UHGV virus genome: UHGV-0133295
From: a virus
Length of the DNA stretch: 30,956 nt
Reading direction: 5' to 3' (one strand)
Shown here: positions 12,001 through 18,000 of the stretch, one piece after another
Layout of the letters: the number at the start of each line of letters is the position of its first letter
How positions within the stretch are numbered: the stretch's first letter is position 1
Position numbers: made by a program

Positions 12001-15000
12001 CAACCTCCTTAGTTTTGAGCAGGATACCATGAAAAAAGTAAACATCTTTTGCCTACTTCACATTTGAATGTTTTGTCATTAGGATGTTTCCGGTTTTTTA
12101 AATATGGAAATTGATATGAAGAGGATTATTAGCGTCGTTGCTGGCGCTATCATGTTATCTGGGTGCGCAACTATTGTTGGTGATGAAACGCAACTTGTGC
12201 AAGTGAACAGCAATCCTTCCGGTGCGAGCTTTAAGGTAAAAGACGAATCAGGCGTGATTGTTGCGCAAGGTAAGACCCCGCAAGGAGTAACTCTTGCCAA
12301 GTCAGATGGTAGTTATTTTGGCAAAAAGAGCTACCAGATCACTATGGAGAAGGATGGGTACGAACCAGTTACCCTGCCAATCAAAGCCAATGCTAATGGT
12401 TGGTATATTGGTGGAAACCTTGTGTTTGGTGGGTTAATTGGTTGGCTTGCTGTAGATCCATTTAATGGTGGGATGTATACCTTGAAGCCTAAAGAGGCAA
12501 ATGCATCCCTTATACCGTCCACAAAGCACGACTAATAAATGGAACCCACCATCAGGTGGGTTTTTTGTACAAATCCTTCAGCGTATCAAACACCATCTTC
12601 TTAACAAGTTCGGACTGCTCATCAGCGATGCGTTCCGCATCGTCTCGATAGCCTGAAATTTTGGATGGCTTTGATACAGCATCAGTCACTATCTGAACTA
12701 ATTCTGAATTAAGAGAGCGGCCATTGGATTTGGCTCGCTGTTTTAGTTTTTCCTTTAATTCGTAAGGTAGCCGCAGATTAAATTGCGGGTCATCTCTTCC
12801 CATTCTTGATGCCTCGCTTTTGTGAGTGGATCGGCATCTTATTATCTGCTGGTTGCATCCTCAATAAGACCACAGTGGTCTCTTTGTTTGATTAATAATA
12901 CATCACTGTGGCAATGCTGCGGCGATTCCTTGTATCTGGAGCAAATTAAATGACAGACATTACAGCCAATGTTGTAGTGAGTATGCCTTCGCAACTCTTC
13001 ACTATGGCGCGTTCTTTTAAAGCCGTAGCCAATGGCAAAATTTATATCGGTAAAATTGACACTGACCCGGTAAATCCTGAAAACCAGATTCAGGTTTATG
13101 TAGAGAACGAAGACGGTTCTCACATTCCTGTTTCGCAACCAATAATCATTAACGCTGCTGGATATCCGGTATATAACGGACAGATTGCCAAATTCGTAAC
13201 CGTGCAAGGCCATTCTATGGCTGTTTATGATGCGTATGGTACACAGCAGTTCTATTTTCCGAATGTGCTGAAGTATGATCCTGATCAGTTACGACAGCAA
13301 TTAGAAGACCCAGATGGAGCGAATAAATACCCAAAACTTCAGATAGCAAGATGGAGAGACAGTTATGATGTAAGAGGTTGGGGGGCTATTGGTGATGGTG
13401 TTCATGATGATACATCAGCTCTATCAGAATTACTTTCTGTTGCAACAGGTGGTGAAAAGATAGATGGGCGAGGGCTTACTTTTAAAGTATCAACTCTTCC
13501 AGATGTCAGTCGATTTAAAAATGCTCGTTTTTTATTTGAGAGAATACCGGGTCAGCCTCTTTTTTATGCTTCTGAAGATTTTATCCAAGGAGAGTTATTT
13601 AAAATTACAGATACACCGTGGTACAACGCCTGGACGCAGGATAAAACGTTTGTATATGACAATGTCATCTATGCGCCTTTTATGGCTGGAGACCGCCATG
13701 GTGTAAATAACCTCCATGTTGCATGGGTTCGCTCAGGAGATGACGGGAAGACCTGGACAACGCCGGAATGGCTTACAGATTTACATGAAAACTATCCCAC
13801 AGTTAACTATCACTGCATGAGTATGGGGGTTGTCAGAAATCGCCTTTTTGCTGTAATTGAGACGCGGACCGTGAGCGGAAATAAACTGCAGGTTGCAGAG
13901 TTGTGGGATCGCCCAATGAGTCGCAGCCTTCGCGTTTATGGTGGTATAACGAAAGCAGCAAATCAGCAAGTCGCTTATATTCGCATTACTGATCACGGAT
14001 TATTTGCTGGTGATTTTGTCAACTTCTCAAACTCTGGTGTTACAGGTGTTACCGGGAATATGACGGTGACTACTGTCATTGATAAAAATACTTTTACAGT
14101 TACGACGCAAAATACCCAGGATGTGGATCAGAATAACGAGGGTAGATACTGGAGTTTTGGTACATCATTTCACTCGTCACCATGGAGAAAAACCAGTCTT
14201 GGAACTATTCCTTCTTTTGTTGACGGAAGCACTCCTGTTACTGAGATTCACAGTTTTGCGACGATTAGCGATAACAGTTTTGCTGTTGGCTACCATAATG
14301 GTGATATTGATCCACGCGAGCTTGGGATACTCTATTTCTCTGATGCTTTCGGTTCTCCTGGTAGCTTTGTTCGCAGACGCATACCTGTAGAATATGAGGC
14401 GAATGCATCTGAGCCATGTGTAAAATATTATGATGGCATTCTGTATCTGACGACCAGGGGGACATTAAGTACTCAACCCGGTAGTTCATTGCACAGAAGC
14501 TCTGATTTAGGTACATCATGGAATTCTCTTCGCTTCCCAAATAATGTTCATCACTCAAACCTTCCTTTTGCCAAAGTTGGCGATGAGCTGATTATTTTTG
14601 GCAGTGAGCGCGCATTTGGTGAGTGGGAAGGAGGAGAACCTGATAACCGTTATGCAGGAAATTATCCAAGAACATTTATGACCAGAGTTAACGTCAATGA
14701 GTGGAGTCTGGATAATGTAGAGTGGGTTAATGTTACTGATCAGATTTATCAGGGCGGAATAGTTAACTCTGCGGTTGGTGTTGGTTCAGTTTGTATCAAA
14801 GACAACTGGCTGTACTACATTTTCGGTGGGGAAGACTTTCTAAACCCATGGAGCATAGGGGATAACAACAGAAAATATCCTTATGTTCACGATGGTCACC
14901 CGGCTGATTTGTATTGTTTCAGGGTGAAAATTAAACAGGAAGAATTTGTTTCAAGGGATTTTGTCTACGGAGCCACTCCTAACAGAACGCTTCCTACTTT

Positions 15001-18000
15001 TATGTCGACGTCAGGCGTGAGGACGGTTCCTGTACCCGTTGATTTCACAGATGATGTTGCCGTCCAGTCACTGACTGTCCATGCCGGTACATCAGGACAA
15101 GTTCGCGCGGAAGTCAAACTTGAGGGTAATTACGCCATTATTGCGAAGAAAGTACCGTCTGATGATGTTACCGCTCAGAGATTAATCGTTAGCGGCGGTG
15201 AAACAACGTCTTCAGCAGATGGCGCAATGATAACGTTGCATGGTTCCGGAAGCAGTACTCCACGTCGCGCGGTATATAACGCACTCGAACATCTTTTTGA
15301 GAACGGAGATGTTAAACCTTATCTTGATAATGTAAATGCTCTTGGTGGTCCGGGAAACAGGTTCTCGACAGTTTATCTTGGCTCCAATCCTGTGGTTACC
15401 AGTGACGGAACATTAAAGACAGAGGCGGTCTCTCCTGACGAAGCATTGCTGGATGCCTGGGGTGACGTCAGGTATATCGCTTATAAATGGCTGAACGCTG
15501 TCGCTATAAAGGGGGAAGAAGGGGCGAGGATACATCATGGTGTAATCGCGCAGCAACTTCGTGATGTTCTTATTTCTCACGGACTCATGGAAGAAGAAAG
15601 CACAACATGCCGCTATGCCTTTCTTTGCTATGACGATTATCCCGCAGTATATGATGACGTCATTACTGGCCAAAGGGAAATACCGCTGACTGATAATGAC
15701 GGGAGCATCATTGTTGATGAGGATGATAATCCAGTGATGGTAATGGAAGACATCATTGAGCGAGTTGAAATAACGCCAGCAGGATCTAGATGGGGGGTCA
15801 GACCTGATCTCTTATTCTATATCGAGGCGGCATGGCAGCGCAGAGAAATAGAAAGAATAAAAGCTAGGTTAGACTTAATAGAAGGGAAGCACTAAATGTT
15901 TCGTTGGCGTCAAAAATATGAACTGCTCACATAAAGAAGTAAGTACATTGGCAAAAAACATTGACGTCAACGAAATTAAATATAAAAATTTAAATGCTTT
16001 TTAATGACAAGAAAAGTAACTAGTGGTAAAATAACGTAGGATACTAATATGTCAAGACTCAAGACTCAAGACTCAAGACTCAAGACTCAAGACTCAAGAC
16101 TCAAGACTCGTTTTCCGTTGATGATAATGGGTCAGGTAATATTTTTGTATGTGGAGATCTTGTAAATAGCAAAGAGAATAAAGTTCAGTTCAATGGAAAC
16201 AATAACAAACTTATTATAGAAGATGATGTTGAGTGTCGATGGCTTACCGTAATATTTAGGGGTGATAATAATTACGTAAGAATACATAAAAACAGTAAGA
16301 TTAAAGGTGATATTGTCGCAACAAAAGGTTCAAAAGTTATTATCGGTAGAAGAACGACAATAGGTGCAGGTTTTGAAGTCGTCACTGATAAGTGCAATGT
16401 TACAATTGGCCATGACTGCATGATAGCAAGAGATGTTATTTTGCGTGCATCAGATGGGCATCCTATATTTGATATTCATAGCAAAAAAAGGATTAATTGG
16501 GCAAAAGATATCATTATATCTAGTTACGTATGGGTAGGGAGAAATGTCTCTATAATGAAAGGGGTATCTGTTGGAAGCGGATCTGTCATTGGGTATGGGA
16601 GTATTGTAACTAAAGATGTGCCATCTATGTGTGCAGCAGCCGGTAATCCAGCAAAAATAATAAAAAGAAATATAATATGGGCAAGAACGGATAAAGCGGA
16701 GCTAATTAGTGATGACAAGAGATGCTCCAGCTATCATGCGAAGCTCACGCAATAAATATAAAACATCTTGCAGACATATTACCAATATTAATATAAGGTA
16801 ATAAAAATATAATTTACAAAAAAGCCCGTTGGAAGCGACGGGCATTAACCGCGGTAATGGATAAATTATTAATGTTTTTAGATTGTGAACGATATCATAT
16901 TGTGCGGAAGTAGTGAAGTAACCATGTAAAATGATTGTTTCATAGCCTATGAGACACACAAGGCTTTGTGCTCTTCTGTGGATGTGTGGCTACATGTTTG
17001 AAGATCGTTGTGCCGTATTTGTGACATACACATGGCAACATCATGCCTCAACTTTCTGTTTGTGCCATCAACTATAGATTAGTGAATGCGGTTAATGCTT
17101 GCTAAAACAGATAGTTATGATTGGTGCTACAGATTCGTAATGCGAAGGTCGTAGGTTCGACTCCTATTATCGGCACCATCAAGAAAATCAATAACTTAGC
17201 TTAACTTCTCTAAGAAATTGTATCTTCTGTTATCACTTACAAACGCCTATACGTTGTTATGGGCTTTGGTAGTGTAACACGTATGGGCGAGTAGTTCCCA
17301 GGCTCAACCTCGTAACAAGTTCCTTTGAAGCTGGAAGACGTGCCACCGTCTCTAAACCTTCTACCAAAACTCTTAGCAAGATGTTCCACACCTGGCGCGG
17401 TGTCCAATGATGCTACACGTCGTGAGACGTTGCAGAGGATAAACAGGCTAAATGATGGGAAGAGTTTTAAGTGCAATAGTGGATTAAAGCCCACCTCTTC
17501 AAAACCTAACTTGATCGGGAAAGAATCAAGCTCTAGCACGGTTTCGTCCACCGGAGTACAACGGGTGCCTGATAAGAGAAGAACTGCTAAGACTTCATAG
17601 CTTTTGTGAAAAAGCCCTTTTTAGTGGATACGCCTACGGCGCTTATTTTTTGGTATAACCATCAAAGGCGCTTTATGGCTCCTATTGTCTTGAAAATGTA
17701 TCTTTACTTGTATTGTGTTTTATGCGTAGTCTCCCTGTGTAGTATGTAACTTGTTAATTTTCATATGAATACAGAGGCACACGATGAAAAACATTGCAGC
17801 TATCAAACGGAATAACCGCAAGATTCACGCTCGTAAGTTCCTGTCTACGCCAGAAGGAAAAGCCTGGTTAGAGCGTAAACAGAGAGAGAACGAAGAAAGA
17901 AAACTCCTTAGTGAGTTGAAATGGCTTAGAGAGGATTTCTGAAAATCTCCAGAACGCAACAGGACGCATTCTAACGCTGTTTTCATTACTCGGTATAGGG

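Follow-up and report, generated by a model that had tools for sequence, protein, structure and literature searches.

A tailspike gene closely related to CUS-3 siaK1 in a P22-like Escherichia coli prophage at thrW

Introduction

The tailspikes of phages P22, Sf6 and HK620 join a common type of head-binding domain to receptor-binding parts that are O-antigen endorhamnosidases or endo-N-acetylglucosaminidases, folded as a right-handed beta-helix and lacking a released chaperone. The endosialidase endoNF (gp17) of phage K1F is built differently: a T7 gp17-like N-terminal adaptor is followed by a sialidase catalytic part, a stalk and a self-cleaving chaperone, known from structures 1v0e, 3gvl and 3gw6. 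In the tailspike SiaK1 of the E. coli prophage CUS-3 the two designs meet; PMC5380687, citing Stummeyer et al. 2006, gives its N-terminal domain as common to P22, Sf6 and HK620 and its catalytic domain as common to K1F. This protein family, its structure, the self-cleaving chaperone and the pairing with neuO, the gene of a polysialic acid O-acetyltransferase, have been characterised since 2003-2010. The gene described here lies at positions 12950-15895 of a 30,956-nucleotide stretch of viral DNA (UHGV virus genome UHGV-0133295, the whole of which is called the window below) and is very probably, as judged from its sequence, an allele of CUS-3 SiaK1 (endoNK1), i.e. the K1-capsule-degrading tailspike of a P22-like (Lederbergvirus) E. 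coli prophage.

The tailspike is as a feature already known, being an allele of a biochemically characterised protein for which crystal structures exist for homologues of every module. The value of the present account is one of annotation: an endosialidase tailspike precursor (predicted mature protein, residues 1-817; chaperone, residues 818-981) belonging to a CUS-3-like Lederbergvirus prophage integrated at thrW, neuO being in the OFF phase. Prophages of this type are markers of extraintestinal pathogenic E. coli with a K1 capsule, and the endosialidase is a useful reagent to remove polysialic acid.

Identity of the tailspike gene

The gene and the leader that precedes it are as follows.

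12950..15895, + strand: tailspike precursor gene (siaK1/endoNK1 type), a single open reading frame from an ATG start, 981 residues, 109.3 kDa
12903..12949, + strand: conserved 5' leader of the tailspike cassette with the ribosome-binding region, at which DNA similarity to the CUS-3, HK620 and E212 tailspike loci begins (blastn)

An initial annotation made from the DNA alone had placed a modular tailspike here; the reading frame occupies exactly 12950-15895, and three modules are seen in both Pfam and structure matches. The guanine-plus-cytosine (GC) content ranges over 0.42-0.46 along the gene and falls to about 0.36 just 3' of it. Compared with siaK1 of CUS-3 (E. coli RS218; protein ABQ88383) the gene is 98.8% identical in nucleotides, and 968 of the 981 residues are the same in two proteins of equal length (981 residues each). 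The endo-alpha-sialidase activity of CUS-3 SiaK1 is given in its GenBank entry as directly assayed. RefSeq protein WP_059329429.1, from E. coli strain E1, is 100% identical to the tailspike in amino acids, and the vB_EcoP-720R6 phage tail gene has 99.8% DNA identity to it, with a product that differs at 3 amino acids. The 4.7-kb stretch from the tailspike through neuO is present over at least 80% of its length in 137 of 5,426 complete E. coli genomes. With more distant relatives, identity in the endosialidase part (residues 146-981) is 63% for K1F endoNF and 59.5% for phi92 endoN92, and roughly 59% and 55% for the K1A/K1E and K1G/K1H (63D) types, respectively.

Domain architecture and module joints

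In a Pfam profile search all six domains of the tailspike score above the curated cut-offs, and together with the structure alignments they divide the protein as listed.

12950..13288, + strand: head-binding (tail-hub docking) domain, residues 1-113 (PF09008, profile positions 1-113 of 113, expectation value E = 1.6e-66)
13289..13384, + strand: linker or neck between the head-binding domain and the endosialidase, residues 114-145, without a Pfam domain; residues 113-150 match the 9vvr tail spike protein over this short stretch
13385..13585, + strand: endosialidase N-terminal extension (End_N_terminal), residues 146-212 (PF12218, E = 8.8e-37)
13586..14935, + strand: catalytic six-bladed beta-propeller (End_beta_propel), residues 213-662 (PF12217, E = 8e-233)
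13919..14167, + strand: beta-barrel inserted in the propeller (End_beta_barrel), residues 324-406, a polysialic-acid-binding domain in endoNF (PF12195, E = 1.2e-46)
14936..15400, + strand: stalk, a triple beta-helix (End_tail_spike), residues 663-817 (PF12219, E = 7.4e-78, and the 3gw6 alignment)
15401..15892, + strand: C-terminal intramolecular chaperone (Peptidase_S74), residues 818-981, 18.6 kDa (PF13884 over residues 818-878, E = 2.4e-10, 41 bits against a cut-off of 22)

Both domains whose absence from a profile search would have told against the initial annotation, the catalytic and the chaperone one, are thus found in Pfam by large margins. Everything between the head-binding domain and the C-terminal domain had been called a sialidase with Asp-boxes, and this agrees with four profiles of bacteriophage endosialidases (endo-N-acetylneuraminidases, GH58) matched end to end and with two Asp-boxes (S-x-D-x-G-x-x-W), SGDDGKTW at residue 262 and SSDLGTSW at residue 517, both in the propeller. 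The alignments to characterised endosialidases and to the S74 family that had been proposed as a check lead to the same assignment: structures 1v0e and 3gvl of the endoNF catalytic part align to residues 145-817 with E = 0, the endoNF S911A stalk-plus-chaperone structure 3gw6 aligns over residues 698-979 with E = 5.5e-94 (E = 1.3e-69 when the C-terminal 202 residues alone are compared with it), and PF13884 scores above its threshold. Matches and motifs of this kind could not be due to chance. Relative to endoNF, whose catalytic part, stalk and chaperone are as in the present protein, seven extra residues (FVDGSTP) stand at 422-428 and one loop of the chaperone domain is longer; where the present protein has a P22-type N-terminal adaptor, K1F has a T7 gp17-like one.

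The head-binding domain matches structures of Sf6 gp14 (7sg7) and P22 gp9 (2vky, 8tvr and 1lkt) over residues 1-118 with E = 1e-65 to 1e-45 (4.4e-67 for 7sg7), and it is homologous over its full length to those of the P22, Sf6 and HK620 tailspikes. The first ~115 residues had initially been described as nearly P22 gp9. They are of P22 type, but not nearly those of P22: over the 113 residues of the domain, protein identity is 76% to P22 gp9 and 92% to Sf6 gp14, and DNA identity to the tailspike genes is 93.6% for HK620, 90% for Sf6 and 72% for P22. Sf6 and HK620 are the nearest relatives, and by sequence the module is assigned to the Sf6/HK620 subtype of the P22-type domain. This DNA similarity begins at window position 12903, 47 nucleotides before the ATG, and the P22-like part of it ends at about 13287-13290, at codon ~113 in the conserved KYDPDQ stretch, which is also the boundary of the Pfam Head_binding domain. 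Beyond that joint the right-handed beta-helix of the P22, Sf6 and HK620 proteins is replaced by the sialidase propeller and the self-cleaving type of chaperone. The published picture of modular exchange, with a conserved adaptor and varied receptor-binding parts, is fully reproduced in this tailspike.

Active site and substrate

Residue numbers of endoNF were transferred through the alignments, in which the FVDGSTP insertion moves the offset from -100 to -93. The endoNF residues H350, R549, E581, R596 and R647, reported as critical in that enzyme (PMC12632334), correspond to H250, R456, E488, R503 and R554 of the tailspike, and all are kept. The 13 substitutions that separate the tailspike from CUS-3 SiaK1 all lie outside the catalytic and cleavage residues, and only 3 of them (positions 207, 454 and 480) lie in the N-terminal extension plus propeller. 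By homology to CUS-3 SiaK1, to which it is 98.7% identical, the tailspike is predicted to hydrolyse internal alpha-2,8 linkages of polysialic acid.

A shift in substrate preference, e.g. towards tolerance of O-acetylated polysialic acid or of the alternating alpha-2,8/2,9 K92 polymer, would allow infection of hosts in which neuO is ON. Such a shift would have some precedent in phi92 endoN92, whose annotation has it cleave K1 as well as K92 polymers; PMC13001214 speculates that O-acetylation may make receptors for newly evolved phages, and the CUS-3 clade is no closer than 63% to endoNF. However, the active-site residues are the same as those of endoNF, no sign of change is seen in the sequence, and few differences from SiaK1 fall in the extension and propeller. 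The idea is a speculation and is considered very unlikely here.

Self-cleavage and the C-terminal chaperone

In endoNF self-cleavage depends on the dyad S911/K916 with a role for stalk residue R897 (PMC8326128). According to PMC3828593, which cites Schulz et al. 2010, this protein is cut directly N-terminal of S911, K916 acts as general base, and hydrogen bonding of T910 to N912 is proposed to kink or strain the scissile bond. The tailspike keeps the equivalents of S911, K916, R897 and T910 as S818 (codon 15401-15403), K823 (codon 15416-15418), R804 and T817, with the Ser-x4-Lys spacing of endoNF; in the 3gw6 alignment A911 and K916 face S818 and K823. Together with the PF13884 match and the 3gw6 homology, these residues bear out the earlier assignment of the C-terminus to the domain type that is removed autoproteolytically.

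The position of the cut had been proposed around VVTS/DGTLK. The motif is the right one, but homology places the bond one residue upstream, between T817 and S818 (VVT/SDGTLK), because the cut in endoNF, MyRF and T5 pb1, and the annotated boundary in phi92, all stand directly N-terminal of the catalytic Ser. The chains of mature endoNF in the PDB terminate in ...IVT; mass spectrometry of MyRF puts the cut after P586, just before the catalytic S587; the mature T5 pb1 fibre ends at residue 1263, with Ser 1264 as the catalytic residue; and in the phi92 endoN92 record, where the protein is annotated as processed, the mat_peptide boundary likewise stands directly before the Ser (T/SD). A cut between S818 and D819 is rejected on the strength of PMC3828593, of mass spectrometry on MyRF, of T5 pb1 and of the phi92 boundary. 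The predicted products are a mature subunit of 817 residues and 90.6 kDa with T817 as its C-terminus, and a released domain of 164 residues and 18.6 kDa.

The Peptidase_S74 match is modest in score and limited to residues 818-878, and residue 819 is Asp where endoNF has N912; both would fit a C-terminal domain that stays uncleaved in the mature spike as a distal binding or stabilising domain. Against this, residues 698-979 align to the endoNF chaperone construct at the E value given above, S818, K823, R804 and T817 are all kept, and phi92 endoN92, which also has Asp at the N912 equivalent within the same SDGTLK motif, is annotated as processed. Retention of the domain is accordingly regarded as extremely improbable, and removal of a self-cleaving chaperone remains the expected fate of residues 818-981.

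The neuO neighbour and its phase

Downstream of the tailspike, neuO is found with its switch.

16049..16755, + strand: neuO, polysialic acid O-acetyltransferase, frameshifted, with the body frame at 16111-16755; a hexapeptide acyltransferase (Hexapep PF00132, and the CUS-3 annotation)
16054..16109, + strand: poly-psi tract, the phase-variation switch, with 8 perfect AAGACTC repeats (TRF: 8.3 copies, 100% match)

The neuO ATG at 16049 lies 154 nucleotides past the tailspike stop and is followed by TC and then by the eight heptads. Counted by regular expression, AAGACTC occurs 8 times here, 11 times in E1, 19 times in CUS-3 and 18 times in phiv205-1. Since neuO is translated in full only when the repeat number is divisible by 3 (PMC13001214), and eight is not, neuO is phase-OFF in this sequence; the arithmetic was confirmed on the DNA, in which the ATG frame stops after 38 codons.

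Possession of both an endosialidase and neuO combines use of a receptor with its modification, which has led to the idea of superinfection exclusion, and protection against lytic K1 phage has experimental support (PMC13001214, PMC9659370). The claim that neuO next door couples receptor specificity to modification of the same receptor by the lysogen holds as to adjacency and accords with this published hypothesis, but here the gene is OFF, and the coupling is not obligatory. Phage 720R6 shares the tailspike and the 194 bp after neuO (16783-16976) but is without window positions 16010-16782; it thus has a near-identical tailspike and no neuO, so that the endosialidase-neuO coupling is frequent rather than obligatory. 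From this comparison neuO and its promoter region are a discrete 773-bp insert of low GC content (0.36) relative to 720R6, moron-like and separable from the tailspike. Direct repeats were not seen at the edges of the 773-bp insert.

Proposed function and intactness of the tailspike

Attachment to the virion would involve the products of the tail-hub genes, which lie upstream.

4560..5042: tail-hub gene of the gp4 family (E1 annotation)
5051..6469: tail-hub gene, gp10 (E1 annotation)
6469..7170: tail-hub gene taken as the gp26 homologue, labelled "hypothetical protein" in E1 and assigned by its position after gp10

Domain content, residue conservation, near-identity to a characterised protein and genomic context were read from this DNA, and by homology to the characterised proteins they lead to predictions of trimerisation, self-cleavage at the T817-S818 bond, enzymatic activity and virion attachment. 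The 109-kDa precursor would trimerise from its C-terminal chaperone domain. After correct folding of the stalk, S818, with K823 activating it and stalk residue R804 helping, would attack the T817-S818 bond, releasing the 18.6-kDa fragment and leaving a stable 90.6-kDa mature subunit. Residues 1-113 would then dock the mature trimer on the tail hub (the gp4/gp10/gp26 homologues), and the propeller, through H250, R456, E488, R503 and R554, would bind and cleave alpha-2,8-polysialic acid. By depolymerising the K1 capsule the virion would bore its way to the outer membrane; in a lysogen, phase-variable neuO could O-acetylate the same polymer, the phase being OFF here. This five-step mechanism is held as a whole with high confidence, and nothing in the sequence contradicts it.

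Some points nonetheless weigh against it. The substitution G454D lies two residues from R456; endoNF has Ala at the equivalent position, so the site is a variable one. The Asp at 819 departs from endoNF N912, with T817 kept. Finally, CUS-3-like prophages are reported to decay often (PMC9659370), and an intact tailspike is therefore no proof of an inducible phage.

That last point bears on whether the gene, though it looks intact, might be a relic of a prophage in decay: neither expressed nor built into virions any more, of no present use to a phage, and at most kept by hitch-hiking with neuO. According to PMC9659370 CUS-3-like prophages are decay-prone, with tail and coat genes often pseudogenised, and copies of the tailspike interrupted by insertion sequences (IS) are found in other lysogens: in phiv205-1 (844-6239) transposase genes are annotated within the head-binding region at about gene nucleotide 207, and in E. 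coli MS1657 the match overlies an annotated IS66-family element. Both copies are examples of decay of this same gene, and the OFF phase of neuO in the present sequence would also suit a relic. On the other side, the reading frame is full length with every functional residue kept. Within window positions 1-17179, the part of the prophage that this test covers, the DNA is 99.85% identical to the E. coli E1 chromosome; the frames upstream of the tailspike encode portal, scaffold, coat, gp4, gp10, needle and the ejection proteins gp7/gp20/gp16, all P22-like, and all the P22-type virion genes in 1-11584 are open, at annotated lengths that equal those of E1 genes not flagged as pseudogenes. The matching prophage of E1 carries genes for integrase, repressor, replication, lysis and terminase, and its pseudogenes are small fragments only. 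A relic is on this evidence unlikely, and a functional K1-specific tailspike remains the favored reading of the gene.

Prophage backbone and attachment site

The right end of the prophage is marked by a fragment of a tRNA gene.

17133..17178, + strand: right attachment site of the prophage, the 46-nucleotide 3' end of tRNA-Thr (thrW), identical to the last 46 nucleotides of E1 tRNA-Thr

ARAGORN reports no complete tRNA in the window, and the attachment-site fragment was found only through the annotated tRNA-Thr of E1. There the order is proA, tRNA-Thr, integrase and so on to the tailspike and neuO, and because the 46-nucleotide match is to a tRNA-Thr next to an integrase the prophage is placed at thrW. 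The sites named for CUS-3-like phages in the literature found are argW and pgl-bioA (PMC9659370), and not thrW; 720R6 appears to sit at pgl-bioA.

The CUS-3 cassette is collinear with window positions 12903-16976 at 98.7-99.7% DNA identity, both loci having the 5' leader, siaK1, neuO and the AAGACTC tract. CUS-3, however, is at argW (PMC9659370), with its integrase immediately after neuO and with ant and "boundary sequences" upstream of siaK1, whereas the present prophage is at thrW, mnt abuts the tailspike, and no integrase lies between neuO and the attachment-site fragment. Because of these three differences the present locus is assigned, by sequence comparison, as the tailspike-neuO cassette of CUS-3 carried by a Lederbergvirus backbone other than that of CUS-3.

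In the region 12552-12949 mnt (Arc/Mnt family) is divergent and just upstream of the tailspike, without arc or ant between them. This layout might be taken as unusual, but phage L has the same one, also without arc/ant, and the arrangement is therefore ordinary. The 146-bp intergenic region between mnt and the tailspike contains a perfect palindrome, AGACCACAGTGGTCT (12867-12881), which the scan flags as terminator-like only; it could be an Mnt operator or a terminator stem. Between the gp16 gene and mnt, 11609-11998 (- strand) encodes a 129-residue protein with a signal-peptide-like N-terminus (phrog_2651, without assigned function), and 12104-12535 (+ strand) encodes a 143-residue lipoprotein-like protein (phrog_6823; transthyretin-like domain protein in the E1 annotation). 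It is possible that these are lysogenic-conversion or exclusion genes.

Exchange of the endosialidase between phages

The endosialidase allele is also found on a quite different phage. The tail protein QTH80017 of vB_EcoP_ZX5 (MW722083, 1803-4922) is about 99% identical in amino acids over residues ~175-966 of the tailspike, with 99.3% DNA identity. One joint lies inside the endosialidase N-terminal extension, at gene nucleotide 522 (about residue 174), before which identity is ~45% and after which it is ~99%; a second lies at gene nucleotide 2914, some 30 nucleotides before the stop, and the last ~15 residues are diverged. In place of the P22-type domain ZX5 has an unrelated adaptor of ~190 residues, a T7-like tail fibre according to its authors, and it belongs to a different genus (Uetakevirus). 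ZX5 (39.5 kb) was considered as a lytic T7-like phage, a description rejected because its record and paper show a temperate Uetakevirus. The shared endosialidase-plus-chaperone allele indicates, from the sequences compared, a very recent exchange between phage genera.

More broadly, K1 specificity may be undergoing a very recent spread in the form of discrete cassettes whose joints are fixed, in at least three combinations of backbone and adaptor, with neuO as an independently gained or lost 773-bp moron. We hold this evenly balanced between true and false; if true, it would be a modest extension of the modular-exchange picture and not a new mechanism.

The element beside the prophage

Directly after the thrW fragment, at 17180-29466, lies a low-GC element of ~12.3 kb that is absent from E1 and is flanked by a 20-nucleotide direct repeat, ACTCCTATTATCGGCACCAT, at 17160 and 29467. 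Its genes include an integrase (28046..29380, - strand) and encode a replication-initiator-like helix-turn-helix protein, a major capsid protein (Phage_cap_E), and tape-measure-like and Dit-like proteins. The element is present over at least 80% of its length in 250 of the 5,426 complete E. coli genomes, at ~95% identity, and resembles a small phage-like or satellite-like integrative element that stands in tandem with the prophage. From 29467 to 30956 the window rejoins the E1 chromosome. In E1 this region has a truncated integrase fragment, then a MarR-family regulator and the vat autotransporter toxin island, so that prophage and 12.3-kb element are stacked at a thrW integration hotspot beside a virulence island.

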